DNA of 64,000 nucleotides from Nitrospinota bacterium (GTDB taxonomy: Bacteria; UBA8248), in the NCBI GenBank assembly GCA_030754595.1, contig JASLZZ010000084.1, positions 12,578 to 76,577 on the forward strand, written 5' to 3'. Shown piece by piece: positions 3,985 through 45,777 of this stretch. The stretch's first letter is position 1; each line of letters begins with the position of its first letter. Both the position numbers and the translations under genes were made by a program. The notes beneath the pieces are model-generated. The model worked only from the letters and a program-made list of their open reading frames with translations. It was not told the origin of the DNA and ran no database searches.

Positions 3985-5016
3985 TTATTGTGCGGTCAAT
4001 GCCTGAAGATCGTACTCGGAGTCGGGCACTAGCAGAGGGACGGGTTCACCCTTCAGAAAGCAAAGCAGATTTTCGGCGGCCTGGATCTCCATCCGAAGAC
4101 GCGAGGAGCGCGAACTCGCCCCCATGTGGCAGGTGAGAATGCAATTCTCGATTTGCGTCAGCTCGCCTTCGTAGGGCTCGCGCTCGAATACATCGAGCGC
4201 CGCGCCGCCCAACCGGCCAGACCGCAGGGCCTCGGCCAGCGCTCCCTCGTCGATCAGGCCGCCCCGCGCCGTGTTGATGAGAACAGCGTCCGGTTTCATT
4301 GTCGCCAACGCCTCGCGGCTGACCACGTTCCTTGTCAGCGGAGTGACCGGAACATGAAGGCAGACAACGTCGGCCTCCCTGAACAGGCGCTCTTTTTCAA
4401 TCCACTCGATACCGAGTTCCTCTCCGATGGCTTCGTCGGGCACCAGGTCGTTGGCGATAATTTTTGCGCCGAAGGCGGCGAGGTGCCCCGCCACGAGCTT
4501 GCCGATTCGGCCGACCCCGATGATCCCGACGGTGAGTTCGTCGAGCGAGCGACCCATGACGCGGACCCAGGCCCCGTCGCGGAGAGAGGTGTCCGATTCC
4601 TTGACTCCCCTGATGAGGGAGAGTACGTGGCCCACGGTCAGTTCCGTTACCGCCACGGCATTGGCGCCGGCGACGTAGGAGACGGGGATCCCCCGTTGGC
4701 GCGCGACCAGAAGGTCCACGCTGTCCAGCCCCACCGAGCACCGCGAGATGAACCTCAATTCAGGCGCGCAATCCATCACCGCGGCCGAGATCGGCTCGGC
4801 GCCGCCGATGATTGAATCGCACCCGGTAATGAGCTCTTTCATGTCCGTTTCATTGAGAAGTCGCCCATGCGGGTTGAAAACGCACTCCACCCCGGACTCC
4901 TCGAGCATCCGAACCGGGAACGGGTCGATTTGGCCGAAACGCTCGGGCGAAATCAGCGTGCGTGTGATCGGCTGATCGGGTCCCGGCGCCGAAACATTCT
5001 GATCGTTCATGCACAT
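3985..5016 (-). CDS. D-isomer-specific 2-hydroxyacid dehydrogenase (SerA/SlcC-like, no ACT domain)
   Basis: VGLDSVD, N..AVTE, GIIGVGRIG, INTARG, LDVFEREP, HMGAS. Confidence 0.88.
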   Translation of the reverse strand: MCMNDQNVSAPGPDQPITRTLISPERFGQIDPFPVRMLEESGVECVFNPHGRLLNETDMKELITGCDSIIGGAEPISAAVMDCAPELRFISRCSVGLDSVDLLVARQRGIPVSYVAGANAVAVTELTVGHVLSLIRGVKESDTSLRDGAWVRVMGRSLDELTVGIIGVGRIGKLVAGHLAAFGAKIIANDLVPDEAIGEELGIEWIEKERLFREADVVCLHVPVTPLTRNVVSREALATMKPDAVLINTARGGLIDEGALAEALRSGRLGGAALDVFEREPYEGELTQIENCILTCHMGASSRSSRLRMEIQAAENLLCFLKGEPVPLLVPDSEYDLQALTAQ

Positions 5017-23426: not shown

Positions 23427-24617
23427 ATGACACTCGAGAAAGATCATCCCCGCCACTCGAAAGAAGAGTATCGCCGCCGCTACCGCGAGATCAGAAAGCG
23501 GATGCGCGAACGAAGGCTCGATGTTCTCGTCATGTACGGCGACTCGGGCAGTCACGGCGGCAACCAGGCCAGCATCAAGTATGTGTCGAACTACAAGGAC
23601 CCGGTCAGCAGTTTTATCGTCTTCCCGCTCAAGGGCGATCCCGCTCTTTACATGTCGAACCGCCTTTATCTGCCCTACGCGAAGCAGATGAGCGTCATCC
23701 GGCGGACCGAGGCGGTCGACTACGACCCCGGCGGCAAGGTCGAGCGGAGGCTCCGCGAACTGGGACTCGAGAAGGCAGCGATCGGGGTTGTCGGCTACCG
23801 GGGAATTCTCCAGACCTCGATTCCCTTCAGCGTGATGGACCACTGGCGGCGCGAACTCAAGGGGGCCTCTTTCATCGAGGCGACCGATCTCCTCCACGAG
23901 GTCCGTGCCATCAAGAGCAAGGAGGAGTTGAAATGGTTCCGCAAGGGCGCCGCCCTGACGGACATGGCATTCGAAGCGCTGGATAAAAAAGCCCGCGAGG
24001 GGATGACCGACTACGAACTGGCGGCGGTGGTGTCGAACGGTTACATGCCCAGCGGCGGCGGACAACAGCTCATCTTCGTCGGCTCCACCTCGATGGCCCG
24101 GCCTCACCTGATCTTTCCGAACCAGTTCCCTACCCACAGAAAGACCCGGAAAGGCGACATCGTTTTGACCGAACTCTCGGCCGACTATTATATGCACTCC
24201 GGGCAGGCGCACCGTCCGATCGTGGTGGGCGCGAAACCCACCCCCATCTATCGAAAGCTCTACGATGTGTCCGTCGAGGCCTACGAACGGATTCTCAGGG
24301 CAGTCAAACCAGGCGCGGGTCACGAGGATGTGCGCAGGGCGGGCGCGATCATCGGCGAAGAGGGGTTCACCACCTTCGACACCACCTTCCACGGGTGGGG
24401 ACTACTAATCGAAAATCCCCGGGTGGACGTTGACGCCACTATTATCAAGCGACCTCAGAACGAAGTCGTATTCAAGGAGGGGATGTTGATGGTGATCCAG
24501 CCCAATGTCCTGACGGCGGACGGCAGGCGCGGCCTCCAGGTGGGAAATCTCGTCGAGGTGACGAAAACCGGTGCGCGCTCGCTTCAGAAATTTCCCATGA
24601 AATTCATGCGGATTTAG
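23427..24617 (+). CDS. M24 (Xaa-Pro peptidase/creatinase) fold protein, probably metal-independent
   Basis: Creatinase-type N-domain, RAIKS.EE, VKPG and HGWG; the usual acidic metal ligands are substituted. Confidence 0.8.
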   Translation: MTLEKDHPRHSKEEYRRRYREIRKRMRERRLDVLVMYGDSGSHGGNQASIKYVSNYKDPVSSFIVFPLKGDPALYMSNRLYLPYAKQMSVIRRTEAVDYDPGGKVERRLRELGLEKAAIGVVGYRGILQTSIPFSVMDHWRRELKGASFIEATDLLHEVRAIKSKEELKWFRKGAALTDMAFEALDKKAREGMTDYELAAVVSNGYMPSGGGQQLIFVGSTSMARPHLIFPNQFPTHRKTRKGDIVLTELSADYYMHSGQAHRPIVVGAKPTPIYRKLYDVSVEAYERILRAVKPGAGHEDVRRAGAIIGEEGFTTFDTTFHGWGLLIENPRVDVDATIIKRPQNEVVFKEGMLMVIQPNVLTADGRRGLQVGNLVEVTKTGARSLQKFPMKFMRI

Positions 24618-24708: not shown

Positions 24709-26112
24709 CTAAATCTTCCAGGCGACCCCCGCGATTTGCCACCAGAAGAGCGTCGCCGTCAGGGTAGTGGCGAAGGCTATCGCGGTCATGAACATTCCGA
24801 ACCGGAAGATCTCTCCCGCGGTTAAATGCCCCCGTTCGTAGACGGCGAGGCTGCTCGGACTCTGCGCCGGGTAGAACAGGATCGAATCTCCCATCAGAAG
24901 AACACCGAGGGCGCACACGAGCGGGTTCAGGCCGCCGCCCTGGCCGATCTCGATGGCAATCGGAATCGTGATGGCGAGGTAGCCGGTGATGTTGGGAACT
25001 AGAATCCGCACCGGAACGCTCACCGCCAAAATAACGGCGAAGAGGAAATACGGCCGCTCGGCGATGGCCGGGGCCAGTTGCAGCAAAGTGAAGGCCAGCC
25101 ATTTCGCAGCCCCGGTGTGTACCATCGTCCAGCCGAGGGAAAGCGAGGCGCCCAGGAGAAAAAACGTCGCCCATGAAAACCTCGTCTCGAAGTCATTCCA
25201 TTCGAGCACGCCGACGCCGGGGGCGAGGAGGAGCGCCCAGGCCATCATCGCCGGCACCGCGGGGTGAAGGCCGTGGATCGGGTCCGAGAGCCAGAGCGCC
25301 GAGGCCATGAGAATGATCAGGGCGGTTCGGATCTCGCCGCTTTTTAAGGGAGTTTTTTCGGCTTCAGGGAGGTCGAGCCGGACGCTCTCGCCGCGCATGT
25401 ACCAGAGGTAAAGGAATAACGAGCCGATGAACAGCGTCAGATAGTAGGGAACGCCCAGAAGGAGAAACCACCGGCCCCATCCCATCCCCCCGATCAGCGA
25501 GGCGGCCACGATTGAGGTCATTCCGCCGGTGAGAAGGGCCGAGGAGGCGAGGCGGTTCAGAGAATGAAGCGCCATCATGACGGCGCGGGCGACGGGTGCC
25601 CCTTTCTTAACGCCGGTGAGCGTGAAGGTGCGGTCGAAAACTTCGGCGAGAATGAGAGACCGGCTGTTCGCCGAGGGCATGATCAGCGCCATCGGCGGAA
25701 ACGAGACCACCATGAACCAGAATAGCGGGCCGCTCTTTCCGCCCGAGAGGCGAAGAAAGAAACGGCCGATTCGCTCGGCGAGGCCGACGCGCTCGACGGC
25801 GATGGCGATGGTGAATACGCCGATGAGGAAAAAAATCACGGGCTGTGAGAAACCGACAAGAGCCTCGCTCACCGACGAGGAGGCCCCCGTCAGAATCAGC
25901 AGCAGGATAACCAGCCCGCCGGTCAGCCCCGCCGGAAGGATTTCGCTTGTCCAGAGGACGACCGCCGCCGCCGCGACGAGCAGCGTCCGGTAGCCCGGCA
26001 CCGAAAGACCGGTTGGCGGGGGAAGAAACAGACAGATGAAAAACGCTAAAAGAAGAAGTGGGGGCAGGCGGCCGAAAGCGCCCGCGCGGGCGGTGTGAAC
26101 CGTTTGGCTCAT
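24709..26112 (-). CDS. SLC13/DASS family anion (dicarboxylate/sulfate) permease
   Basis: About a dozen hydrophobic segments; LWTSEILP, MPSANSR, TGAAKWLA and PAQSPSS motifs of DASS transporters. Confidence 0.8.
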   Translation of the reverse strand: MSQTVHTARAGAFGRLPPLLLLAFFICLFLPPPTGLSVPGYRTLLVAAAAVVLWTSEILPAGLTGGLVILLLILTGASSSVSEALVGFSQPVIFFLIGVFTIAIAVERVGLAERIGRFFLRLSGGKSGPLFWFMVVSFPPMALIMPSANSRSLILAEVFDRTFTLTGVKKGAPVARAVMMALHSLNRLASSALLTGGMTSIVAASLIGGMGWGRWFLLLGVPYYLTLFIGSLFLYLWYMRGESVRLDLPEAEKTPLKSGEIRTALIILMASALWLSDPIHGLHPAVPAMMAWALLLAPGVGVLEWNDFETRFSWATFFLLGASLSLGWTMVHTGAAKWLAFTLLQLAPAIAERPYFLFAVILAVSVPVRILVPNITGYLAITIPIAIEIGQGGGLNPLVCALGVLLMGDSILFYPAQSPSSLAVYERGHLTAGEIFRFGMFMTAIAFATTLTATLFWWQIAGVAWKI

Positions 26113-26367
26113 TTCCGGTTCTCCGGTAAAAACATAATCTCGCCTCCTTTTCCCTCTGCCGGGGCTTCCGCCGAGGGAAATGGGTTTTGTCGATGAGTCT
26201 ATTGGGGATTCTAACGCCTTCGAGCGGGCGAATCGATCCGGCCGCGTAAGAAGCTTCTCCGGAACGGTTGACACGGCGTGGGCGGGCTCGTTCATACTCG
26301 GGTTTCGAGTCTTGAGTCTCGGGCCTTTTCGGACCCGGCCCTATTTCCATGAATTCGGGGAGCGAAT

Positions 26368-27354
26368 ATGCCGTTCGAGCGCGACGAAAGTGACCTCGTC
26401 GAAGTGTATTACGAAAAAGGTTGGACGGACGGGCTTCCCGTCGTGCCCCCGACGCGAGAGAAGGTGGACGCCCTGCTTCGGGCGGGCGGTCTTCCCGCGG
26501 ACGACGTCCTCGGAGAAATCGCACCCAATTACGGCGCCGCCACCGGCGAGAAGGTCGCGATCAACGCTGTGATGGCGGGCTGCGCTCCCGAGCATATGCC
26601 CCTTGTCGTCTCGGGCGTCCGTATCATGGCGGACAAGGAATTCAACCTTCACGCGATCGGGGGAATGACCGATTCCGCCTCGCCCCTCGTCATCGTCAAC
26701 GGGCCCGCCCGAGAAGCGGGGGGCATTAACTGCGGAAACGGGGTTTTCGGGAACGGAACGCGCGGGAACGCCGTCGTCGGCCGAGCGTTGATGCTGGTGC
26801 TCGCCAACATCGGGGGTTCGCGGCCGGGCGGGATTTCCCGGACGATGTTCGGCTCGCCGGCAAGGTACTCCTACTGCATCGGCGAGAACGAGGAGGAAAG
26901 CCCCTGGGAGCCGCTTCACGTAGAGCGCGGGATCGAAGCTGGCCGGGGGGCGGTGACGATGCTCCCCTGCGAGTCGCCCCACGAGATTCGGATCGAGGGG
27001 GTGACTAAGGCGGAGGAGATGGCCGATATCCTGGGGCGCTCGATGTGCAGCGTCTGGTCGGCGAACAAGCATCATATTCACATCAGCGGGGTGATTCTGG
27101 CGCTGGGGCCGATGCATGCGGCCGTGTTCGGAGGCGCGGGCTGGAGCAAGGCTGCTACGCGGAACGTTATTTTTCAGTCTGCGATTATGCCCGACGAGGA
27201 AAACGGCTCCCCTTTGCGAAAGTTTTTGTCGCCCGAGGCTATTACGATAATCGTGGCGGGCGGCGCAGGTGGAATTTACAGCATGCTCTTGCCCGGCATC
27301 GCAGACTACATGGGGACGAACATGGTCACCCGGCCGGTCGAGCCCGCGGGGTAG
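26368..27354 (+). CDS. Conserved protein of the type found next to UGSC selenoproteins (unknown function)
   Basis: GWTDGLPVVPPT...EKVAINAVMAGC...VNGP...GENEEESPWEPLH...IIVAGG motif set; immediately upstream of the UGSC gene. Confidence 0.75.
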   Translation: MPFERDESDLVEVYYEKGWTDGLPVVPPTREKVDALLRAGGLPADDVLGEIAPNYGAATGEKVAINAVMAGCAPEHMPLVVSGVRIMADKEFNLHAIGGMTDSASPLVIVNGPAREAGGINCGNGVFGNGTRGNAVVGRALMLVLANIGGSRPGGISRTMFGSPARYSYCIGENEEESPWEPLHVERGIEAGRGAVTMLPCESPHEIRIEGVTKAEEMADILGRSMCSVWSANKHHIHISGVILALGPMHAAVFGGAGWSKAATRNVIFQSAIMPDEENGSPLRKFLSPEAITIIVAGGAGGIYSMLLPGIADYMGTNMVTRPVEPAG

Positions 27355-27409
27355 ACAGAAGTCCCCGGAGCGGCAGGCAGGCGCGGATTTTTTTCTGAAG
27401 GAGAGGATT

Positions 27410-27940
27410 ATGCCCGAGCTATTCGATCCGACCGCGAAGCCGAAGCGCCGCGTCGAGAACCTGGCGGTGCGCCCCGGCAGCCTCGCGGGAAAGGTGATTG
27501 GCCTTCTGGACATCGGCAAGCCGAAGGGGGATTGGTTTCTCGAGGCGGTGGGGGAGCTTCTCAGGGAGAACTACGGGGCCCGCGAGACGGTCTACTACCG
27601 CAAACCGACGCACGCCAAGCCCGCGCCCGGTGAGTTGGCCGAGGAGATCGCCCAGCGGTGCGACGCCGTTGTCGAGGCGCTCGCCTACTGAGGAAGCTGC
27701 ACGACGTGCAGTTTGCACGATGCGGCCTTTTTCGAGCGCTGGGGAGTGCCGGCGGCGCCGGTGGTGACGCGGGAGTTTCTTCAGGCGGGGGAATTTCAGG
27801 CGAAGGCCCTCTTCGGCGGAGACTACCCGATCGTTTTCACCCCTCATCCGGTCGCCCACATGGAAAAGGAAGAGTTCTCCCGGCTCGCGCAGGATGCGCT
27901 CGAGGGGATCGCCGGCCGGCTCATGTCCGCCTCCTCATAA
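27410..27940 (+). CDS. UGSC family selenoprotein (176 aa; Sec at codon 94, TGA 27689-27691)
   Basis: ORFs ending at 27691 and 27940 are in frame across one TGA: ...VEALAY-U-GSCTTCSLHDAAFFERWGVP... Strong RBS before 27410 and a SECIS-like hairpin downstream of the UGA. Confidence 0.9.
27692..27726 (+). promoter_or_regulatory. Candidate bacterial SECIS element
   Basis: GCUGCA-cga-CGUGCA-GUU-UGCACG-a-UGCGGC stem-loop with a G-starting apical loop after a 19-nt spacer from the UGA. An alternative fold AAGCUGCAC/GUGCAGUUU is also possible. Confidence 0.6.
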
Positions 27941-27967
27941 CCTCGACTTAATGAACTGGAGCCCGGT

Positions 27968-29710
27968 TTGAGCAACTCCGCTTTCCAGGTCCGTAAATGC
28001 GATGTGCTCATCCTGGGATCGGGGGGCGCCGGGCTGCTCGCGGCGCTGGCGGCCTACGAGGCCGACCCCGCCCTCGATATCCTCATCGCCGTCAAGGGCC
28101 TGTTCGGGAAAAGTGGGTGCACCCGCATGGTCCAGGGCGGCTACAACGTCGCCCTCTCCGATAGCGATTCGGTCGAAAACCACTTCATGGACACGGTGCG
28201 GGCGGGTGCCTGGCTCAACGACCAGGACCTCGCATGGGAACTCGTCAGCCGCGCTCCTGGCTGCATCCGCAGGCTCGAGACCGTCTGCGGCGCCTTCTTC
28301 GACCGGAGTCCGGACGGCGAGATCCACCAGAAGGCCTTCGCCGGCCAGAGTTTCGACCGCACCGTCCACAAAGGCGACCTCACCGGCATCGAACTCACGA
28401 ACCGCGCCTCCGAGCAGATAATCCGCCGAGGGATTCCCGTTCTCGAGGAGCGCCGCGCAATCGCTCTCTTGCCCGATTCGGGTGCGGCCGGCCGGGTCGC
28501 CGGGTCGATGCTCCTCGATATCCGGAGCGGTGAGTTCACCGCCGTCAACGCGAAATGCACCCTTCTCGCGACCGGCGGAGGCCCCACATTCTACAAATAC
28601 TCGGCCTGCGCGCAGGAGCTCGCCACCGACGGGATGGCGATGGCCTGGGAGGCGGGCGCGGACCTTTGCGACATGGAGATGGTCCAGTTCCATCCGACGG
28701 GAATTCTCACGGGCGAGGGACTCCAGATCACCGGAACCCTGCTGGAGGAGGGGCTGCGCGGCGCGGGTGGCCATCTGCTCAACGGCCGTGGTGAGCGCTA
28801 CATGGAGCGCTACGACCCCGAGCGGATGGAGCGCTCAACGCGCGACCTGGTGGCTCGCGCGGGCTACACCGAGATCAAGGAGGGCCGCGGCACCGAGAAC
28901 GGCGGCGTTTTCATCGACGTAAGCCATCTCGGGGCGGATTTCGTCCGAAAGAATTTCAGGGGGATGGTGGATCGATGCGCCGATTTGGGCTTCGATCTCG
29001 CGGGAGCGCCCGTCGAGGTCTCCCCGACGGCGCACTACATGATGGGTGGCGCGAAGATAGACACCGGCTGCCGGACGAGTCTCCCAGGCCTTTTCGCGGC
29101 GGGCGAGGACGCCGGCGGCACCCATGGGGCGAATCGCCTCGGTGGAAACGGGGTAGCGAACTCCACCGTGTTCGGCGAGGTGGCCGGGCGAGAGATGGCG
29201 GCCGAGGCCGGCGGCGCTCCGTTCGAGAGTTTTGATCGCGGCTCGGCTGAAGCGTCGGTTGAGGAAGCGTTGGCAGCCCTCGGCGACGGGGACTCTCCTT
29301 ATCCCGTCCGCGCCTCGCTCAAGGAGCTGATGTGGAAAAAAATCGGTCTTCGGCGCAACGGGGCCGACCTGGCTGCGGGCCTCGAGGAAATCGCCTCTCT
29401 CGGGGAGCGGGCGGCCCGGGCCCGCGCCGGTGGAGGCCGGGCCTACAACATCGCCTGGCAGAATGTCCTTGACGTTTGCAACCAGATCGCCGTGGCGGAG
29501 TTGATCGCACGGAGCGCCATCGAGCGCGACGAGAGTCGGGGCAGCCACTACCGGGACGACATTCCCGAGCAAAAACAGGGCGCGCTCTATAACGTTTTCA
29601 TTTCGAAGCGGGGCGAGAAGGCCGCCGTCGAACGCCGTCCGGTCCGCTTCACCCGTGTCAAGCCGGGCGAGGAACTCGCCGCCGCCGAGCCCGTCAATTT
29701 TATGGATTGA
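27968..29710 (+). CDS. Succinate dehydrogenase/fumarate reductase-like flavoprotein subunit (divergent)
   Basis: GSGGAG, LATGG, MEMVQFHPTG, STRD, AHYMMGG, HGANRLGGN, RDESRGSHYRDD. Confidence 0.9.
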   Translation: MSNSAFQVRKCDVLILGSGGAGLLAALAAYEADPALDILIAVKGLFGKSGCTRMVQGGYNVALSDSDSVENHFMDTVRAGAWLNDQDLAWELVSRAPGCIRRLETVCGAFFDRSPDGEIHQKAFAGQSFDRTVHKGDLTGIELTNRASEQIIRRGIPVLEERRAIALLPDSGAAGRVAGSMLLDIRSGEFTAVNAKCTLLATGGGPTFYKYSACAQELATDGMAMAWEAGADLCDMEMVQFHPTGILTGEGLQITGTLLEEGLRGAGGHLLNGRGERYMERYDPERMERSTRDLVARAGYTEIKEGRGTENGGVFIDVSHLGADFVRKNFRGMVDRCADLGFDLAGAPVEVSPTAHYMMGGAKIDTGCRTSLPGLFAAGEDAGGTHGANRLGGNGVANSTVFGEVAGREMAAEAGGAPFESFDRGSAEASVEEALAALGDGDSPYPVRASLKELMWKKIGLRRNGADLAAGLEEIASLGERAARARAGGGRAYNIAWQNVLDVCNQIAVAELIARSAIERDESRGSHYRDDIPEQKQGALYNVFISKRGEKAAVERRPVRFTRVKPGEELAAAEPVNFMD

Positions 29711-29744
29711 TGACTGAGAAATCAGGCATGAGAAAGGAGATGTG

Positions 29745-30089
29745 ATGGCTTCCCTGTCCGGCCCTCCGGCCCGGCCCCCGTTTTGGAATCTTTCGGCGTG
29801 GCGGGCCATGTATCCGGGCATGTGGGCGTGGGTGATTCAGCGCCTCTCGGCTGTGGTGCTGCTCGTTATTTTTCCTTTCCATGTCCTGAATCCCTACAAT
29901 AAGTGGCTGCGGATTGCCGTGCTGGCGCTCGTGATTCTTCACGGAATGCACGGCCTCAAGGTGATTTTCACCGATTTCGGGTTTCCCGCGCGGCATCAAC
30001 GCAAGTTGCTTTGGGTCTTGACGGCGCTAGGAGCCGCCGCGTTTTTCTGGCTCGCCTATCTCCGAAAGGCCTTTTGGGGATTTTTTTGA
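29745..30089 (+). CDS. SdhC-like cytochrome b membrane anchor
   Basis: GMWAWVIQRLS, three TM segments, H...HG..GLKVI..D; its TGA overlaps the next ATG. Confidence 0.82.
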   Translation: MASLSGPPARPPFWNLSAWRAMYPGMWAWVIQRLSAVVLLVIFPFHVLNPYNKWLRIAVLALVILHGMHGLKVIFTDFGFPARHQRKLLWVLTALGAAAFFWLAYLRKAFWGFF

Positions 30090-30847
30090 TGGTGGGTGGC
30101 GGCGTCATTTTCCGCGTTCGGCGCGGCGGCGAGGCGGGCGATCCCCAAGAGCGATACCAGACCTACGCCATCACGCCGCGCCCGAGGATGACCGTCCTCG
30201 ACGTGCTGACCTCCATCCAGAGCGAACAGGACGCCTCCCTTGTGTTTCGCTATTCCTGCCGGGTGGGAATGTGCGGAACCTGCGCCCTCCGGGTGAACGG
30301 GCGGCCCCGCTGGGCCTGCCGGACGCTGATCACGGAGCTGGGCGAAAGCGTAACCCTCGAGCCACTGGCGAATTTCCCCCTCATCCGCGATCTGGCCGTG
30401 GACATGACGCCCTTCAGCGACGGCCTGAAACGCGTGCGGGCCTGGGCCGAGCCCACCGAGGCCGCCGCCTCCGCTCCGGCGCGGATCCTTCCCAGCAGTA
30501 GAGAGCGGGTCCGGATCGATCCCCATATCGAGTGCATCACCTGCGGTATCTGCTATTCTGCCTGCTCCATGCTGGGACACGATCCGGCTTTTCTGGGACC
30601 CGCGGCGCTCAACCGGGCCTATACCCTGGTGTGTGACAGCCGAGACGCGGCGAGCGCGGAGCGGTTGGCCGAGGTGTCCGGGGAGCAGGGCATCTGGCGG
30701 TGCCACAGCCAGTTCAACTGCACCGAGGCCTGCCCAAAAGGAATCAGTCCGGCCACCGCCATTCAGGGCCTCAAGCGACAGGCGGCGGCGAGCGGGGCGA
30801 AATCTTTTGTCTCGTCCATCATCGGGGGCCGCGCCCCCGGAGCATAA
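30089..30847 (+). CDS. SdhB/FrdB-like iron-sulfur subunit
   Basis: SCRVGMCGTC...C (2Fe-2S), CITCGICYSAC and CHSQFNCTEACP cluster motifs; DLAVD. Confidence 0.92.
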   Translation: MVGGGVIFRVRRGGEAGDPQERYQTYAITPRPRMTVLDVLTSIQSEQDASLVFRYSCRVGMCGTCALRVNGRPRWACRTLITELGESVTLEPLANFPLIRDLAVDMTPFSDGLKRVRAWAEPTEAAASAPARILPSSRERVRIDPHIECITCGICYSACSMLGHDPAFLGPAALNRAYTLVCDSRDAASAERLAEVSGEQGIWRCHSQFNCTEACPKGISPATAIQGLKRQAAASGAKSFVSSIIGGRAPGA

Positions 30848-30893
30848 TAATAATTATCTCTCCTACAGGAGAGATTTTTAGGAGGATCAGGCG

Positions 30894-31844
30894 ATGCCTA
30901 CCGCAACCGGCGCCTTCATCGGCGCCGACCTTACCCGGGAAGTCGCTTTCGAGCTCAACCGACGCGCTGCGATTCACATTCCGGGCGATGTCCGCCAGAG
31001 CGTTCGTGGCATGGCCGAGCGCGAGACCGAGCGGCTGTCGAAATTCGTCCTGCTCGAAATCGTGAACAACTACGAGGTGGCGGACGAGGACCTCCGTCCC
31101 ATGTGCGCCGACACCGGGCTTCCGCGCTTTTACGCCAAGGTTGGGAACGAGGCACGCCTTGAGGGCGGTTTCGTCGCTTTCGAGAGGAGCATTCGCGAGG
31201 CGACTGCCCGCGCGACGACTGAAATTCCCCTTCGCCCGAACCGCGTTCATCCGATCACGCGGTACGATTACAACAACAACGTCGGCATCCACGCGCCGAG
31301 CGTGGACTACTCCTGGGAGCCCGGGGCCGACTGGGTGGAAATGACCGCCTTCCACAAGGGGGGCCTGTTTGGCGGCGACTACCGGATGCTCTTCCCCGGG
31401 GACGGAATCGACGGAATCCGCCGATTCTACCTCGATGTCATCAGCGAGTTTTTCAAGCGCGGGCTTTCCTGCCAGCCGGCCATCGTCGGCATCGGCATCG
31501 GCGGGACGAAGGATACCTGCGTGAAACTGGCAAAGGAGGCGGCCTGCCTGCGCGTGGTGGGCGACCGGAATCCCGATCCACAGATCGCCGATCTCGAGGA
31601 CGAGCTCGTCGAACTGGGCAAGCGATCCACCCTCGGTGCGATGGGCTTCAAGGGCGAAGGCGCGGTGATGGACGCCCACATCGAGGTCGCCTACACTCAC
31701 ACGGGCGGGATGCCCGTTTCCATTCACCACCAATGTTTCGCCCTGCGGCGGAGCACCGCGCGGATCCACCCGGACGGGGAGGTCGAGTACCGCGAGGACC
31801 CGCGGTGGTTCACCGATTACTACCGCCGCGATTCGGTGAGTTGA
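30894..31844 (+). CDS. Fe-S hydro-lyase alpha subunit (class I fumarase / tartrate dehydratase family, divergent)
   Basis: PMCADTG, PLRPN, CQPAIVGIGIGG, LGAMGFKG, CFALRR. Confidence 0.88.
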   Translation: MPTATGAFIGADLTREVAFELNRRAAIHIPGDVRQSVRGMAERETERLSKFVLLEIVNNYEVADEDLRPMCADTGLPRFYAKVGNEARLEGGFVAFERSIREATARATTEIPLRPNRVHPITRYDYNNNVGIHAPSVDYSWEPGADWVEMTAFHKGGLFGGDYRMLFPGDGIDGIRRFYLDVISEFFKRGLSCQPAIVGIGIGGTKDTCVKLAKEAACLRVVGDRNPDPQIADLEDELVELGKRSTLGAMGFKGEGAVMDAHIEVAYTHTGGMPVSIHHQCFALRRSTARIHPDGEVEYREDPRWFTDYYRRDSVS

Positions 31845-31861
31845 CCGGGGATTTTTTGGCC

Positions 31862-32551
31862 ATGAGCGAAAAGAACACATCGGACCTCCTGATGGACGAG
31901 CACCTCCTCGAGACTTCCGTTTCGCGGGAGGCGCTGGATAAGCTCAGGATAGGCGACATCGTGCGTCTGAACGGCGTGATTTTCACGGGCCGAATCGGGC
32001 TTTATAAAAAACTCTTTGACGAGGAGGCCGAGCCGCCCGTCGATATCGCCGCACTCACGAACGTTACTTTTCATTGCTCCCCCGCGGTGGGCGAAAAAGC
32101 GCCCGGCGAGTGGGAGGTCTCAGCCGTTACGGCGACGGCGAGTTTTCGATTCGAGAAGCATCTGCCTCTGCTCATGGAGCGGCACGGCGTCCGCTGTGTG
32201 ATTGGCAAAGGGGGAATGTCCCCCGAGTTCTACCGGGACCATTTCAAGCGCCTCGGCGGGGTGTTCTTGAATACGGTGGGGTACGGCATCGGTGCGCAGT
32301 ACGGCAGGGGCGTCCAGAGGGTCGAGGCGGTGCACTGGCTCAAGGAGCTGGGCATTGCCCAGGCGATGTGGGTGCTCCGGGTGAAAAACTTCGGGCCATT
32401 CCTCGTCGAGTGCGATACGGAAGGAAACAGCCTCTACGAGATGGCGATGAAGGAAACCAACGAGAATCTCAAGGGGCTTTACGCCGATCTCCCGCTGCCC
32501 ACCCTCAAGCGAATGGGCGAGGTGCATAACCCCGAGGACGAAGTGTTCTGA
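31862..32551 (+). CDS. Fe-S hydro-lyase beta subunit (fumarase / tartrate dehydratase family)
   Basis: LRIGDIVRLNG.IFTGR, IGKGGM, ELG..AMW.L.VKNFGP...D..GNSLY. Confidence 0.88.
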   Translation: MSEKNTSDLLMDEHLLETSVSREALDKLRIGDIVRLNGVIFTGRIGLYKKLFDEEAEPPVDIAALTNVTFHCSPAVGEKAPGEWEVSAVTATASFRFEKHLPLLMERHGVRCVIGKGGMSPEFYRDHFKRLGGVFLNTVGYGIGAQYGRGVQRVEAVHWLKELGIAQAMWVLRVKNFGPFLVECDTEGNSLYEMAMKETNENLKGLYADLPLPTLKRMGEVHNPEDEVF

Positions 32552-32566
32552 TCCGGGTCGCTCTCA

Positions 32567-33853
32567 ATGGGAAAAATTCGAATGAACCAAAATCAGGTTA
32601 TACGGGCCAACCGCGCCCGCATGAAAAAAGAGTTCGACGCGCAGTCGAGGATCGGCCGCCACGGCAAAACCGGGTTGGCGAGAGTCGCCCTCACCCCCGA
32701 CTACAACCGGGTACGGGAACTCGTTCGGCGATGGATGGAGTCCGCCGGGCTCAAGACGCGGGTGGACGCCGTGGGGAATCTCATCGGCAGGAAAGAGGGC
32801 CGGGTGAAGGGGTTTCCCGCTGTGATGGCCGGCTCACATCTGGACTCGCAGAATCCGGGAGGGCGCTTCGACGGCCCCGCCGGGGTGCTGTCCGCCCTTG
32901 AGGCCGTCCGACGAATCGGCGAGACGGGCGCCGCCCACGACCATCCACTGGAGGTCGTCGCCTTCGTCGGAGAAGAATCCACCTGCGGGCTCGTGACGTT
33001 CGGGAGCAGTGTCATGGCCGGGCAGGTGGGAGCCGCTGCGATGAAGGCGGCGGTTCACTCACCGACCGGCAAGTCGGTCTACGAGGCGGTCCGGCTGGCG
33101 GGGGGGAATCCTTCGCGGGTGAAAAGCTGCCGCCTCCCCCGGGATTCGCTGAAGGCGTTTATCGAGCTTCACATCGAGCAGGGACCCGTTCTCGAGGCGG
33201 CGGGGGTGCCCGTCGGTGTCGTCGACACCATCGTCGGTGCGCTCAGGGGGGATATTCACTTCGAGGGCCAGACGGCTCACTCGGGCGGACAGCCCATGCC
33301 CTACCGGCGCGACGCGGCCATGGCCGCCGCGGATTTCATGTTGGAGATGGAGGGCGCGGCGCGGCGGGCGCCCGAGAGCCAACGGATGACGCTGACGTTC
33401 GGGGTGATATCGGCCCGGCCGGGATGGGTTTCGATTGTGCCGGGCGGAGCGAGCATTTCATTCGATCTGAGAAGCAAAAGCGATAAGGCGTCGGCGGCGA
33501 TGCTCGGGCGGATGAGGAAAGCGCTCGGGCGAATTCAAAAAAGACGCGAGGTGAGGGGGCAGCTTAAGCTTAGTGTGAAGTACGCGGCCTGTCCGGCCTC
33601 TCGGGGAATCCGCCGGGCGATTGAGCGGGCGGCCGGTGAGACGGGCCACCCTTCGATGACGCTATCGAGCGGGGGAATTCACGACGCCTGCCGGATCGCC
33701 GCCCTGTGTCCGATCGGGATGGTTTTTGTACCCTCGGTGAAGGGGCTTTCGCATACTCCGGAAGAGTACACGCGGTTTCAAGATATCGCGGTCGGGGCCG
33801 AGGTGTTGACCTCGGCGATGTTGCGGCTGGCCGGACGCCGCGTGAAGGCGTAA
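32567..33853 (+). CDS. Zn-dependent N-carbamoyl-amino-acid / allantoate amidohydrolase family (M20)
   Basis: DAVGN, GSHLDS..GGRFDG..GV, GEE, ELHIEQGP, HSG..PM..RRDA, HDA, SH.PEE. Confidence 0.92.
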   Translation: MGKIRMNQNQVIRANRARMKKEFDAQSRIGRHGKTGLARVALTPDYNRVRELVRRWMESAGLKTRVDAVGNLIGRKEGRVKGFPAVMAGSHLDSQNPGGRFDGPAGVLSALEAVRRIGETGAAHDHPLEVVAFVGEESTCGLVTFGSSVMAGQVGAAAMKAAVHSPTGKSVYEAVRLAGGNPSRVKSCRLPRDSLKAFIELHIEQGPVLEAAGVPVGVVDTIVGALRGDIHFEGQTAHSGGQPMPYRRDAAMAAADFMLEMEGAARRAPESQRMTLTFGVISARPGWVSIVPGGASISFDLRSKSDKASAAMLGRMRKALGRIQKRREVRGQLKLSVKYAACPASRGIRRAIERAAGETGHPSMTLSSGGIHDACRIAALCPIGMVFVPSVKGLSHTPEEYTRFQDIAVGAEVLTSAMLRLAGRRVKA

Positions 33854-33871
33854 GGGCCGGCGCCTCTTTTC

Positions 33872-34483
33872 TTATTTTTCCTCGATCCATCTTGCGGCAA
33901 AGGGACGGCCGCCGCCGGTGATGATCCCGGCGTCGGAGTCCGCCCAGTCGGCGTAGAAAATCAGGGAAGCTTCATAACTCGTGGCGCGGGTGTTGCTAGC
34001 CCGCGTGTGAGTGATGACGAGATGGGCGAGTTCCATCGCCTTGGGCAGGTCTTTCTCCCAGATTTTATGCGCCCCGTAGACGCCGTGCTGAATTTTCGAG
34101 CCGAATTCGGTTTTCCTAGCGGACAGGATGCTACCTCCGCTCGGCTGCCCTCCCGGGTCGGGCTCGCTTTCGATGGGTTTTGAAATATCGTGGAGGAGGC
34201 AGGCGGCGATGAGCAGGTCGCCGTCCACGGTGATTCCGTGAATTTTCTCCGCAACCTCGGCCAGGGCGAGGGCCATCCGGGTAACGCCCTGGATATGGCC
34301 TATTAGGGGTTCGTGTTTTTCAAGCGTCAGGTTCTTTGGAATATCCTCGAAGCGCTCCCAGGCGGTCTCGTCGGCGAGTTCGAGCCAAATCTCAACGACC
34401 CCCTCTCTAAGGGTCTTGTCCTGAATCTGGTCCACCTCGGGAAATATTTTTCGGATCCCCTCGGCGTCGATCTGGATGGCCAT
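33872..34483 (-). CDS. HD-domain phosphohydrolase
   Basis: H...V, D.LIAACLLHDISK, QHG, TH, EA..I.YAD. Confidence 0.82.
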   Translation of the reverse strand: MAIQIDAEGIRKIFPEVDQIQDKTLREGVVEIWLELADETAWERFEDIPKNLTLEKHEPLIGHIQGVTRMALALAEVAEKIHGITVDGDLLIAACLLHDISKPIESEPDPGGQPSGGSILSARKTEFGSKIQHGVYGAHKIWEKDLPKAMELAHLVITHTRASNTRATSYEASLIFYADWADSDAGIITGGGRPFAARWIEEK

Positions 34484-34719
34484 GCGGTATGCCCCCCGGT
34501 TTGTGAGAAAAGGAAATAGGGTAATGCGTGAGGGTGAGATTTTATGCCGGAGGAGCGCCCGAAACAACGGACAGGGCGCGCGGGGGAAAGGGGTCCCACC
34601 ATTCGCGGGGAGGGCGGGATAAGTCCCCCCCGGCTTCAACCAGAGGCGGAATTGGTCTAACATGGCGGGGCGCCACCGCAATTTCGAGGAATTTCGGGGA
34701 AATACCCGAGGAGTCCACC

Positions 34720-42517: not shown

Positions 42518-44092
42518 GTGAATTTCACGGGCTGGATGTACGACATCGCGCGGGAGCAATCGCCGGGCGAGGACTATCTGCTCGAATTGATCGGGCGCTC
42601 GGCCGGGGCCGGCTATAACGCGGTGGGCCTTTACCTCGAGCACCGCTTCGCCTACCCCTCGGCCCCCTGGGCGGCAGGGCCGGGCTGCCTGACGCCGGAG
42701 ACGGCGGGGCGGCTGTCGAAGGCGGCGCGGGAGTTCGGGGTCCGCCTCATCCCCTTTTTAAATACGCTGGGCCACATGGAGGGATTCATCCGGGCCGAGG
42801 GGGGCCAGTGGCTTGCCGAGGCGCCGGGGCGGGGGGTTTTGCAGATTTGCCCGAGCCGGGAGGAGTGCCGCGAGTTCGCCTCCGGCCTCGTGGCCGACGC
42901 GGCGGCGGCCTTTGACGACGAATGGATCCACCTGGGCGGGGACGAGACGCATCAACTGGGCGAGTGTCCCCGCTGCCGGGAGCGGGCGGCGGAGATCGGC
43001 GAGGTGGGCCTTTATGCCGAGTTCTATGGGAGACTCTGCCGCGAGGCGATCGCCCTCGGGCGGCGGCCCTGCCTCTGGGGTGACATGCTCGCCAAGTATC
43101 CCGATGCGCTCGGCGGGATTCCCCCCGAGACGGTGATTTTCGACTGGAACTACGAGGAGGCTCCCTCGGAGACGAGCGCGATGTTCCGCGAGCGGGGCTT
43201 TGATGTGGTGCTCTCCTCGGCGGTGCGCTCCTACGACGCGAACTGGTGTTTCCTGGACGATACCCGCCGGGTGATCGACTCCCACCGGGAGGAGGCCCAA
43301 AGGGCCGGCGCGGACCAGTCCGGCACAGAGCAATCCGGCGCCCGCAGGGCCGGGCAGCTTGTTTGCGCCTGGGAGTTTTTCGGGTTCTCCCCGTTCGAGT
43401 CGGTCCTGCCGGTGGTGATGGCGGCGGGCCGGCGGATTTCGGCGGGTGAAGAGTGGGGGGCCGCGCTCGAGGCCGAGGGCGGCGAGGCGTTCGCCCGCGC
43501 GGTCGAGATTCTTGGGAGTGAAATCCCCCGGCTCTCCCCGTTTCTCGCGCCGGGGGGGTGGCGCTCGCTCCGCGAGCCGCTCATCAAGCAGGGCGACCCT
43601 TTTCGCCTCTGGCGGGCCTGGCGGGAGGACGCCTGCAGTAGAGTGGGCGATAGGGTCCTCGAGGCGCTGGAGGAGGCGGGCGATCTTATCGGGCCGGAGA
43701 GCCCCGGGCCGGAAAACCCGCTCCGCTTCCCGGTGGATTTTCACCGCGCCTGTCTGGAGTGGGTGCGCCTGGTGGAGCGGGCGGCGGAGCGATACGCCGC
43801 CGGAAATGTGGAGAGCGCGGCGGCGCTATTGGGCGAGGGCGCGCGCGTCCTCGTCCGGCTCAGGCCGGGGCTCGAGAGGATCGCGGCGGGCGGGGGCTCC
43901 GGGGCCGACCCCCTCCGGCTGGACGGCCTCCTCGAGGCGATCGAGCGCGCCCAGGGCAACCTCCGCGCCGCCCCTGAAACCGGCGGCGGCAGGCCCGCCT
44001 TCGAGATACTCACCCAGGCGGGATACATCCCCGGCGATCAGGCGGGCTGGCCGGCCGAGGGGACGGCCTCGGGCTGGCGGGAGCGCGGCTAG
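42518..44092 (+). CDS. Glycoside hydrolase family 20 (beta-N-acetylhexosaminidase-like)
   Basis: MYDIAR, IP..N.LGH, the catalytic HLGGDE motif, WGDM, DWNY. No signal peptide. Confidence 0.82.
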   Translation: MNFTGWMYDIAREQSPGEDYLLELIGRSAGAGYNAVGLYLEHRFAYPSAPWAAGPGCLTPETAGRLSKAAREFGVRLIPFLNTLGHMEGFIRAEGGQWLAEAPGRGVLQICPSREECREFASGLVADAAAAFDDEWIHLGGDETHQLGECPRCRERAAEIGEVGLYAEFYGRLCREAIALGRRPCLWGDMLAKYPDALGGIPPETVIFDWNYEEAPSETSAMFRERGFDVVLSSAVRSYDANWCFLDDTRRVIDSHREEAQRAGADQSGTEQSGARRAGQLVCAWEFFGFSPFESVLPVVMAAGRRISAGEEWGAALEAEGGEAFARAVEILGSEIPRLSPFLAPGGWRSLREPLIKQGDPFRLWRAWREDACSRVGDRVLEALEEAGDLIGPESPGPENPLRFPVDFHRACLEWVRLVERAAERYAAGNVESAAALLGEGARVLVRLRPGLERIAAGGGSGADPLRLDGLLEAIERAQGNLRAAPETGGGRPAFEILTQAGYIPGDQAGWPAEGTASGWRERG

Positions 44093-45777
44093 CCCCGCTG
44101 TTTCACGGCGTCCTTGCGCCGGGGCTCGGGGTAGATGTCGGCGTCGATGATCACGTCCACCAGAACGGGCTTGTTCTGCTTCAACGCTTCCGAGTAGACA
44201 TCCTCCAGCTCGCTCGGGTCCTCGACCCGGTAGCCGACGGCCCCGAAGGCGCGCGCGTAGTCGTCGAAGCGGGGGTTGCCGATGGCGTCGCCGATGTAGC
44301 GCTCGTTATAGAAGTGGTTCTGGTAGGCCCGCTCGGAGCCCAGGTTGTGGTTGTTGAGGATGATGGTCACGGTGTTGAGCTTCTCGCGGACGGCGGTTTC
44401 GAGCTCGGCCCCGTTGAAGAGGAAGGCGCCGTCCCCGCTGATGGTGACGACGGGGCGGTCTGGGCAGGCGAGCTTCGCCCCCAGCCCGAGGGGGTAGCCG
44501 ATACCGATGGCGGCCAGGTCCTGCGGGGCGAGAAAGCTGCGAGGCCGGTCGAACTGGTGGTACTCGTAGACGTAGCCCGCCGCGCTCCCGGCGTCGAGCG
44601 TGATAATGGCGTTCTGGGGAATCACCTTGGCGAGGGCCATCTGCGCCCGGCGCGGGTCGATGGGCTTGGCGCCGTAGGTCAGGCCTTTTTCACGGTGGGC
44701 GCTCTGTGCCGCCATGACCTCATCCGCGCGGCGTTTCCAATCCGAACCAGACCCTTCCGCAGCGGAGCTATTGTCTCCCGTGAGGGCGAGCAGCCCTTGC
44801 AGTACGAGTCCCGAATCGCCGATGAGGCCGACCTCGGCCGGGTAGTGGCGCTCGACGCTTTTCTGATCGTGGGCCGCATGGATCAGTTTCGTCCCCTCGC
44901 CGAGGAAAGTGTCCCGCAGGAAGGTGGTGCTGTGGGCGAGCCGGGTCCCCACGGCCAGGACGACGTCGGCCTCCTTGAAGAGCGCGCCCGCCTCGGGGAT
45001 GGTGCCGCGCCCGATCGAACCCAGGAAAAGCGGGTGGGCGGTCGGAACCACGTCGTCCCTGCCCGTCGAGGTCATGATCGGCGCGCCGAGGGCCTCGGCC
45101 AGCGCGATGAGATCGTCGGTCGCCTCGGCCCAGATGACTCCGCCCCCCGCGAGGATGAGGGGCCGCGCCGCTTTTTTTAGCAGCTCGGCCGCCTCGGCGA
45201 GCCTCGCCGGGTCGGCCCCGGCCCGGGGGAGATCGTCTGAGCCGCGGCTGTTCAGCCGGGGGACATCCACATCCTCGAGCATGATGTCGCGCGGGATGTC
45301 GAGGTGAACCGGCCCCGGAACGCCCGAGATTGCCGTGTGATAGGCCTCGCGGACGAGATTGGCCGTCTGCCCGGCCTTCCGCACCTGGATGGTTCGCTTG
45401 ACGACGGGCGCGAACATCGCCAGGTGATCGATTTCCTGGGTGGACTCGTAGAACATGTCCTTCGTCATCGGCGCGCCCGTGATGACGACGACCGGGCTCT
45501 GCGCCAGCTTGGCGTGGGCCACCCCGGTGATGAGGTTGGTGGCGCCCGGCCCGTTTGTCGCCATGCAGACGCCGGGGGATCCGGTAAGGCGGCCGTGGGC
45601 GCTCGCCATCAGCGCTCCGCTCTGCTCGTGGCGCACGGTGACGAACCCCAGGTCCTCCCGGCCGTACATGCCGTCGAGAATTTCGACCAGGCACGAACCC
45701 GCCATCCCGATGACGTTTCGCACCCCCAGTTGAGCAAGCGACTCGGCTACCGCGTATCCCGCAGACATCTTGGCCAT
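44089..45777 (-). CDS. ThDP-dependent enzyme resembling sulfoacetaldehyde acetyltransferase (Xsc)
   Basis: RHEQ, NGPG, F.RPRSFLAP, GAK.A.PDRP, GDGAF...GSER..Q..FY..RY.G and a C-terminal EP.R.DA.K, which recall Xsc rather than ALS. Confidence 0.75.
   Translation of the reverse strand: MAKMSAGYAVAESLAQLGVRNVIGMAGSCLVEILDGMYGREDLGFVTVRHEQSGALMASAHGRLTGSPGVCMATNGPGATNLITGVAHAKLAQSPVVVITGAPMTKDMFYESTQEIDHLAMFAPVVKRTIQVRKAGQTANLVREAYHTAISGVPGPVHLDIPRDIMLEDVDVPRLNSRGSDDLPRAGADPARLAEAAELLKKAARPLILAGGGVIWAEATDDLIALAEALGAPIMTSTGRDDVVPTAHPLFLGSIGRGTIPEAGALFKEADVVLAVGTRLAHSTTFLRDTFLGEGTKLIHAAHDQKSVERHYPAEVGLIGDSGLVLQGLLALTGDNSSAAEGSGSDWKRRADEVMAAQSAHREKGLTYGAKPIDPRRAQMALAKVIPQNAIITLDAGSAAGYVYEYHQFDRPRSFLAPQDLAAIGIGYPLGLGAKLACPDRPVVTISGDGAFLFNGAELETAVREKLNTVTIILNNHNLGSERAYQNHFYNERYIGDAIGNPRFDDYARAFGAVGYRVEDPSELEDVYSEALKQNKPVLVDVIIDADIYPEPRRKDAVKQRG

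Follow-up and report, generated by a model that had tools for sequence, protein, structure and literature searches.

The closest described relatives of the genes considered here belong to complex II, as in the E. coli enzymes SdhCDAB (1NEK) and FrdABCD (1KF6), to the two-subunit iron-sulfur (Fe-S) hydro-lyases, as in the class I fumarate hydratase of Methanocaldococcus jannaschii (7XKY) and the tartrate dehydratase TtdAB of E. coli (b3061/b3062), and to the UGSC-containing selenoprotein family of Zhang and Gladyshev 2008 (the family description in PMC2398784), whose function a 2026 review, where it mentions the family, still gives as uncharacterised (PMC13188914). Relatives of all of these meet in an array of eight genes in a Nitrospinota bacterium (GCA_030754595.1; 3.55 Mb in 138 contigs), within the 64,000-nucleotide (nt) stretch comprising bases 12578-76577 of contig JASLZZ010000084.1 (C84), which we call the window. 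As a first-pass annotation of the sequence had described, the eight genes are co-directional, all lying on the + strand at 26368-33853; they encode a UGSC selenoprotein preceded by a partner protein, a flavoprotein, a small membrane anchor and an Fe-S subunit like those of complex II, the alpha and beta subunits of an Fe-S hydro-lyase, and an M20 amidase (Table 1). That annotation read all eight as one selenoprotein-led pathway. Our comparisons point instead to a recent, genus-level mosaic of the partner-UGSC pair, a five-gene cassette (SdhA-SdhC-SdhB-HlyA-HlyB) and the M20 gene, a reading to which we give a probability of roughly 0.6. The cassette would be the functional core of the array, an accessory, membrane-bound complex II look-alike with its own Fe-S hydro-lyase, and within an uncharacterised complex-II-like family it is a new form, set apart by the order of its genes, the number of its anchors and the type of its hydro-lyase.

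Conservation was assessed in 34 related loci from species genomes and 80 metagenome loci, and all 114 loci (1.42 Mb in total) were searched by tblastn with the three UGSC proteins and the six partner paralogues of this genome. The cassette, found in 32 of the 51 genomes of the phylum, has its complete gene order in 24 of the 34 genome loci and is interrupted by a contig end in two more. UGSC and its partner stand upstream of it only in the window and in L019, L022 and L142, together the four species of the window's own genus that could be assessed (g1, with five species, the fifth of which, L020, is cut 435 nt upstream and not assessable). Of the loci from other genera, none of the 21 that could be assessed has the pair, and neither has any of the 80 metagenome loci, the tblastn searches giving UGSC or partner matches in 2 of the 114 loci, with L142 additional. 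This distribution answers the synteny question raised in the first-pass annotation: the adjacency of UGSC and partner to the Sdh-like and hydro-lyase genes is not conserved, and by that criterion the selenocysteine (Sec) link does not hold outside genus g1, so that a single selenoprotein-led pathway is not supported. Partner and UGSC form a two-gene selenoprotein module which is not a conserved companion of the other array genes. One observation pulls the other way, namely that the gap of 19-27 nt between UGSC and SdhA is preserved over the four species, which are 78-97% identical; this fits co-transcription, and a functional coupling specific to the genus, with some role for the selenoprotein, is possible. 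A search for sequencing runs listed no RNA data set holding the stretch.

The cassette itself has moved. In 21 loci it is followed by a 2-hydroxyacid dehydrogenase gene, and most of these loci also hold methyltransferase, short-chain dehydrogenase/reductase (SDR) and M16 genes, the cassette sitting in most of them between the methyltransferase and two M16 genes. In the present genome the SDR, methyltransferase and 2-hydroxyacid dehydrogenase genes and the M16 pair are found together on contig C56 (67309-73062), with about 150 nt at the junction and without the cassette. Since its old flanks are joined there in its absence, the cassette was translocated as a unit, and L023 supplies a third genomic context for it. 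The 2-hydroxyacid dehydrogenase was considered as the next pathway step and rejected, because in this genome it remained on C56, beside the methyltransferase and M16 genes, when the cassette moved away.

Downstream of the cassette the M20 gene occurs only in genus g1 and in G042, and it is a local addition that joined the array in genera g1 and g4. In three relatives its orthologues, 65-67% identical, are found away from the cassette, with a DinB-like gene upstream in both relatives annotated on that side and a LIV-type ATP-binding cassette (ABC) transporter downstream in the one relative annotated there, and for this reason the carbamoylase, which the first-pass annotation had counted among the pathway enzymes, drops out of the core. 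The protein has the M20 and dimerisation domains and scores 348 bits against TIGR01879 (cut-off 204), and it passed no equivalog cut-off (ErtE, 369 vs 520; allantoate amidohydrolase, 373 vs 399).

It could still be argued that all eight genes make up one pathway, in which the imported analogue bears an N-carbamoyl, thio or sulfo substituent that the Sec enzyme (UGSC plus partner) cleaves or handles, with the M20 enzyme taking off a carbamoyl group. The spacing is tight, the successive intergenic distances of 55, 27, 31, -1, 46, 17 and 15 nt agreeing with the gaps of under about 60 bp noted at first pass (the anchor stop and the SdhB-like start share 1 nt); no sigma-70-like promoter was predicted inside the array, and a terminator-like site is found only past the M20 gene, where the transcription unit probably ends. 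Moreover, the full array, together with the neighbouring DASS permease and M24 hydrolase genes, is kept in the four assessable species of the genus. However, the units separate in every other lineage examined, as the counts for UGSC and its partner and the dispersed M20 orthologues illustrate, and five cassette-bearing relatives have no orthologue of the window partner, their best copies being 45-46% identical to it. In addition, the partner family runs to 6-15 copies per genome, which makes a chance adjacency likelier. Taken with the mosaic distribution, these points leave the one-pathway explanation quite unlikely.

Table 1. Genes and other features of the array, its flanks and the distant upstream group (window coordinates, except where a contig is named)
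Feature	Position	Strand	Model match or remark
UGSC partner, 328 aa	26368..27354	+	no Pfam or NCBIfam match
UGSC selenoprotein, 176 aa, Sec at residue 94	27410..27940	+	PF24696, NF041046
Hairpin, candidate selenocysteine insertion sequence (SECIS) element	27689..27734	+	begins at UGA
SdhA/FrdA/TfrA-like flavoprotein, 'Cys/Glu-Glu' clade (GKSGCTRMVQGG; LEEGLRG)	27968..29710	+	FAD_binding_2 + Succ_DH_flav_C
Single small membrane anchor, SdhC-like, 115 aa	29742..30089	+	Sdh_cyt PF01127, 32.8 bits
SdhB-like Fe-S subunit	30089..30847	+	Fer2_3 + Fer4
Fe-S hydro-lyase alpha, 'CADTG' type	30894..31844	+	Fumerase
Fe-S hydro-lyase beta, 'TATASFRF' type	31862..32551	+	Fumerase_C
M20 amidase, hydantoinase/carbamoylase family	32567..33853	+	TIGR01879
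Terminator-like hairpin with T-run at M20 stop	33846..33865	+	consensus match only
HD-domain protein, convergent downstream gene	33872-34681	-	domain match
DASS-family anion permease	24709..26295	-	Na_sulph_symp 128 bits, CitMHS
M24 creatinase/prolidase-like hydrolase	23427..24617	+	Peptidase_M24 + Creatinase_N
Upstream SAF/GD_AH/ThDP decarboxylase/D-2-hydroxyacid dehydrogenase group	702-974; 1092-2235; 3985-5016; C84 12061-13275 (L057)	-; +; -; 	

That the cassette is not the housekeeping tricarboxylic acid (TCA) cycle set, as had been proposed at first pass, follows from the rest of the genome, which encodes eight SdhA-type flavoproteins, two SdhB-type proteins over the family cut-off and two Fumerase-type alpha subunits. 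A type-B sdhC(b558)-sdhA-sdhB set is found on contig C114 (190/96, 1157/866 and 416/243, given as bits/NCBIfam cut-off) and an icd-mdh-fumA-fumB set on C78 (632/567, 491/352, 369/276 and 265/238), so that every canonical gene passes its curated cut-off elsewhere and the cassette is therefore accessory. Likewise, each of five complete relatives has two SdhB-type and two Fumerase-type genes. A TGA flagged within another SdhA-like paralogue, on C46, was considered as a Sec codon and proved on reading to be an ordinary stop codon.

With complex II the cassette shares the protein domains, four site residues, the three cluster motifs and an Sdh_cyt anchor, and it differs from complex II in having a Cys at the His that links flavin adenine dinucleotide (FAD) as 8-alpha-N3-histidyl-FAD, a Glu at Thr254, one anchor of 115 residues, and its own hydro-lyase encoded alongside. 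The alignment of the flavoprotein (FAD_binding_2, 242.8 bits; Succ_DH C-terminal domain, 81.2 bits) to E. coli SdhA, whose numbering is used here, places the Cys at His45 and the Glu at Thr254, as expected from the altered motif reported earlier, while His242, Arg286, His354 and Arg399 are preserved. These four and Thr254 are the dicarboxylate-site residues, of which four out of five are thus retained, and Thr254 hydrogen-bonds a carboxylate of the substrate. The flavoprotein may carry 8-alpha-S-cysteinyl-FAD.

The Cys and Glu substitutions are invariant within the clade of the window, and 117 of the 120 top database homologues carry both (the other three are fragments), as do 80 of the 90 rows of a flavoprotein tree. 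The canonical SdhA of this genome has His and Ser-Glu at the signature positions, and both it and the outgroups keep Thr or Ser. In the tree, which was made by a short search with supports from the Shimodaira-Hasegawa-like approximate likelihood ratio test (SH-aLRT), the signature clade comprises 81 rows (SH-aLRT 97%) and divides into the A-C-B clade of the window (26 rows, 100%), named for its gene order, and a sister clade of 55 rows (83%). Cys plus Glu is thus a simple sequence rule that tells true complex II from a very large group of proteins to which the label 'fumarate reductase' is at present attached. The group is large indeed, as relatives of the window flavoprotein are encoded in at least 591 metagenome stretches, and, to judge by the record titles, metagenomes of deep-sea, oxygen-deficient and groundwater origin commonly hold the lineage.

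None of the 37 NCBIfam models matched by the flavoprotein reached its cut-off. The highest-scoring named family was TfrA of the thiol:fumarate reductases (NF004900, 553 vs 718), a likeness by score, and the cassette departs from TfrA/TfrB in having a short SdhB-type partner (135.7 bits vs the TfrB cut-off of 385) and a membrane anchor gene. The best match among solved structures was Sdh1 of M. smegmatis (7D6V, 302 bits). The Fe-S subunit scores 210 bits against TIGR00384 (cut-off 88) and 226.1 vs 228 against PRK05950, and the cysteine patterns for the 2Fe-2S, 4Fe-4S and 3Fe-4S clusters are legible in its sequence. The genome paper of Nitrospina gracilis describes type B and type E succinate:quinone oxidoreductases (SQRs; PMC3578206); by our own comparison the lone small anchor of the cassette fits neither. 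A literature search combining Nitrospina gracilis, fumarate reductase and fumarate hydratase found nothing.

The hydro-lyase is of the same fold family as the two-subunit class I fumarate hydratase and TtdAB, and shares with them the cluster cysteines, the Asp of CxDTG, the Arg of the beta subunit and GKGG; it differs in four altered motifs and in a C-terminal extension of the alpha subunit. The first-pass annotation had noticed altered substrate motifs in this enzyme, and these are confirmed: CADTG replaces CQDTG, CFALRR replaces CxADRR, TATASFRF replaces GPTTSxRM, and RIGLY stands in the place of RDxxH. All three Fe-S cysteines are kept, and three canonical polar residues are lost, Gln becoming Ala, Thr becoming Ala, and Asp becoming Leu or Ile. 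The Gln of CQDTG is missing from all 120 of the best alpha homologues (CADTG in 105, CSDTG in 12 and CGDTG in 3), which come from several phyla going by their source names, with Fidelibacterota, Binatia and Gammaproteobacteria among the lineages named, and the canonical motifs are kept by the M. jannaschii fumarase, by E. coli TtdAB and by the FumAB of this genome. Both subunits miss the equivalog cut-offs for fumarate hydratase and tartrate dehydratase (alpha, 209.5 vs 276 for fumarate hydratase and 153 vs 365 for TtdA; beta, 118.5 vs 269 and 116 vs 264), the one cut-off that the alpha subunit clears being that of the broad domain model TIGR00722 (222 vs 100). Literature on the crystal structure of the M. 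jannaschii class I fumarate hydratase was looked for, and nothing was found.

In one relative the cassette looks decayed: at L051 (10001-14594) the motifs of the flavoprotein and of the hydro-lyase beta subunit are scrambled, and in the 8-Mb genome (G034, contig C24) two TGA codons lie within the match to the hydro-lyase alpha subunit.

The residues that are retained raise the question of whether the cassette could be a true second quinol:fumarate reductase with its fumarase, serving a branch of the TCA cycle that is reductive or works at low oxygen, with the motif changes only tuning the direction of the reaction. His242, Arg286, His354, Arg399, the cluster motifs, the cysteines of the hydro-lyase and its catalytic Asp are all in place, and in genus g3 the cassette lies amid housekeeping-like genes with no transporter or regulator adjoining. 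It is also consistent with this explanation that homologues with noncovalent FAD, in the portion of PMC9557727 dealing with them, reduce fumarate and cannot oxidise succinate. On the other hand, the active-site Thr is replaced by Glu clade-wide, where the canonical copy and the outgroups keep Thr or Ser, and the hydro-lyase is without the Gln, the second Thr and the Asp that are kept by both fumarases and tartrate dehydratase. Furthermore, the sister clade with the same signature lies amid sulfonate genes and not TCA genes (see below), and a full canonical set is present elsewhere in the genome. We consider a second fumarate reductase unlikely.

As an accessory enzyme, the cassette would act on a succinate analogue X-CH2-CH2-COO-, which would be desaturated at the flavin, the three Fe-S clusters relaying the electrons to quinone at the small anchor; at its [4Fe-4S] cluster the hydro-lyase would then add water to the resulting enoate, giving a 2-hydroxy acid. 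We infer the substrate and the direction of the reaction, and in this scheme X would most likely be a sulfonate, with 3-sulfopropanoate converted to 3-sulfoacrylate and on to 3-sulfolactate. The sequence 3-sulfopropionate (3-SP), sulfoacrylate, sulfolactate has a precedent in Roseovarius nubinhibens, for which PMC11489063, in the passage concerned, cites a thesis and names no genes; the same passage states that bacterial 3-SP degradation had not previously been reported, and PMC12890257, at the point where it turns to 3-SP breakdown by B. wadsworthia, terms it 'unclear'. The chemistry of the R. nubinhibens route fits a pair of dehydrogenase and hydratase, and with regard to its desulfonation downstream, which is of the SuyAB/ComDE/Xsc type, the sister clade lies by SuyAB-like, ComD-like, TauE, TauD and SorA-like genes, whereas no sulfonate gene adjoins the cassette in the clade of the window.

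The evidence for a sulfo-substituted substrate thus comes chiefly from the neighbourhoods of the sister clade. The 80 metagenome loci, taken from the set of at least 591, encode relatives that are 52-57% identical to the window flavoprotein, with a few at 64-75%; genes were called and clustered, and the clusters were named by Pfam. Besides Fumerase alpha (43 of the 80 loci), Fumerase beta (37), SdhB (31), SdhC (27) and SdhD (22), the neighbourhoods hold TctC (32), TauE (19), a split, SuyB-like GD_AH gene (18) and its companion of 107 residues (15; no Pfam match, SAF-like by position only), a 2-hydroxyacid dehydrogenase (13), a thiamine diphosphate (ThDP) enzyme (12), a ComD-like gene (10), TauD (5), a SorA-like gene (4) and YeiH (4). 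At least one sulfonate-type marker was present in 39 of the 80 loci, the figure being 28/39 among loci of at least 8 kb. Some of these loci have the same type of hydro-lyase as the window, and there TauD follows in L091 and L126, and TctCBA, a ThDP enzyme and TauE are nearby in L121.

A distant group of genes in this genome is also of relevance. On the same contig, 22-27 kb upstream of the cassette, there are a ComDE-like pair, a split SAF and GD_AH pair, and a 2-hydroxyacid dehydrogenase, and the ComDE-like pair is 52% identical to the ComD-like gene of the metagenome loci. The upstream group could be a C3-sulfonate gene set. The grouping there consists of the SAF and GD_AH (SuyAB-like) pair, a two-subunit ThDP decarboxylase, and a D-2-hydroxyacid dehydrogenase (Table 1); the best matches of the decarboxylase are sulfopyruvate decarboxylase alpha and beta, both under their cut-offs, and in a relative of the same genus, G055, the same spacing is found. 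Two further ThDP enzymes, at window 44089-45777 (-) and at L057 1612-3405 (-), score 285-371 bits against sulfoacetaldehyde acetyltransferase, below its cut-off, and about equally against models of acetolactate synthase.

Several observations weigh against extending the sulfonate substrate to the clade of the window. This clade is the sister of the marker-bearing clade and is not nested in it, with about 55% identity between the two, and the marker frequencies are raw counts, given without a background rate near arbitrary genes. By tblastn, TauE, TauD, SorA and ComD-like genes were found in none of the 34 genome-contig loci, and GD_AH only in L043 and L046, both outside the window's clade; no close TauE or TauD homologues were found in this genome with the queries used. 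The ComE-like gene is absent from all 23 genomes of genus g3, 21 of which have the cassette, and is present in two of four g9 genomes, all without the cassette. As for the enzyme itself, a Glu in place of Thr254 is not an obvious fit to an anionic sulfonate, and, with the histidyl-FAD site gone, the flavin may be bound noncovalently and the enzyme may run as a reductase (PMC9557727), if it is not a cysteinyl-FAD. For the window's clade the sulfo-substituted option is an extrapolation, and although it is the best supported of the substituents that the first-pass annotation had listed, the conversion of 3-sulfopropanoate through sulfoacrylate to sulfolactate as the route of this clade would, on the present comparisons, fall somewhat short of an even chance. 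ComDE-like genes as obligate companions of the cassette were also considered, and were ruled out by their distribution over the 51 genomes.

The misfit of the Glu could be turned around to argue for another succinate analogue, with an uncharged or positively charged distal group, for example an amide, an onium group (as in dimethylsulfoniopropionate) or an alkyl- or thio-acid. The Glu that replaces Thr in the flavoprotein would bind this group, and the added Phe, Phe and Tyr of the hydro-lyase would form a less polar pocket, in keeping with the replacement of Gln and Thr by Ala and of Asp by Leu or Ile and with the new aromatic residues of TATASFRF and RIGLY. It also fits such a substrate that the window's own clade has no sulfonate gene beside the cassette. 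Nevertheless, the argument is one of residue chemistry alone, and the gene context points to no such substrate; TauD or TauE occurs in the three loci with the same hydro-lyase type, and the Glu is common to the sister clade that is linked to sulfonates. We therefore view a neutral or cationic group as quite unlikely, and prefer the sulfonate as the candidate substrate of the accessory cassette.

If 3-sulfopropanoate is indeed oxidised and then hydrated by these enzymes, the cassettes would provide genes for a reaction in organosulfur cycling that recent papers treat as open. A broader proposal, which we offer tentatively and hold to be doubtful, is that the genes so far lacking for the route from 3-sulfopropanoate through sulfoacrylate to sulfolactate are those of the 'Cys/Glu-Glu' flavoproteins and of the hydro-lyases private to them. 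The A-C-B cassette of the window, with its one anchor and its CADTG/TATASFRF hydro-lyase, would then be a second, undescribed version of the route in Nitrospinota/Tectomicrobia-like bacteria, with UGSC wired into its transcript in one genus. Should UGSC be part of the same transcript, this would be the first testable metabolic context for the family. Yet a caution is in order, as the neighbourhood seen here is not a conserved clue to the UGSC substrate.

Compared with its family, the UGSC protein of the window is ordinary, sharing the U-G-S-C motif with Sec and scoring over the curated cut-off (136.4 vs 125 for NF041046; 158 bits for PF24696), and it is the neighbourhood, confined to one genus, that is unusual. 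In its motif A-Y-U-G-S-C, the U stands for the in-frame TGA at 27689-27691; the genome carries a gene for tRNA-Sec and three UGSC genes, each with one in-frame TGA. The hairpin at the UGA has a folding energy of -21.6 kcal/mol (z = -1.66), and 14 of 200 shuffles fold equally well, so that it is weak alone as a SECIS candidate. Sequence searches of solved structures gave no match to UGSC up to E = 1 and no relative of the partner below E = 0.07. A fusion of UGSC to a domain termed 'Unknown_1' is among the arrangements described in PMC2398784, and this domain may be the partner.

The partner has six paralogues in this genome, and 14-15 copies in each of five genomes of genus g3. It adjoins UGSC on C84 and on C109, and on C116 three partner copies lie 2.7 kb away from UGSC; at these other two UGSC loci the neighbours are unrelated to those in the window. 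On C116 (L015 4683-11899, - strand) the three partner paralogues are in tandem, followed by a molybdenum hydroxylase gene on the opposite strand and then by UGSC, with an enoyl-CoA hydratase gene directly after it. On C109 (L014 9748-11692, - strand) a MarR regulator, a partner paralogue and the third UGSC gene stand in a row, and the downstream genes encode a family III CoA-transferase, an FAA-family hydrolase and a class III aminotransferase.

Upstream of the array, the DASS permease is divergently transcribed, as had been stated at first pass, its gene lying on the - strand 72 nt from the partner start as called. It scores 133 bits against TIGR00785, under the cut-off of 198.6, and is kept in L019, L022 and L142, with about 431 residues alignable in L022; the real start is probably downstream of the called one. 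The M24 hydrolase passed no NCBIfam cut-off, its top model being ectoine hydrolase (80 bits vs 575), and it adjoins the array in the window, L019, L022 and L142, the four assessable species of genus g1. Genome-wide tblastn showed catabolic families to be strongly expanded, with matches to the acyl-CoA dehydrogenases of the window on about 30 contigs and to its M24 creatinase-like protein on 15.

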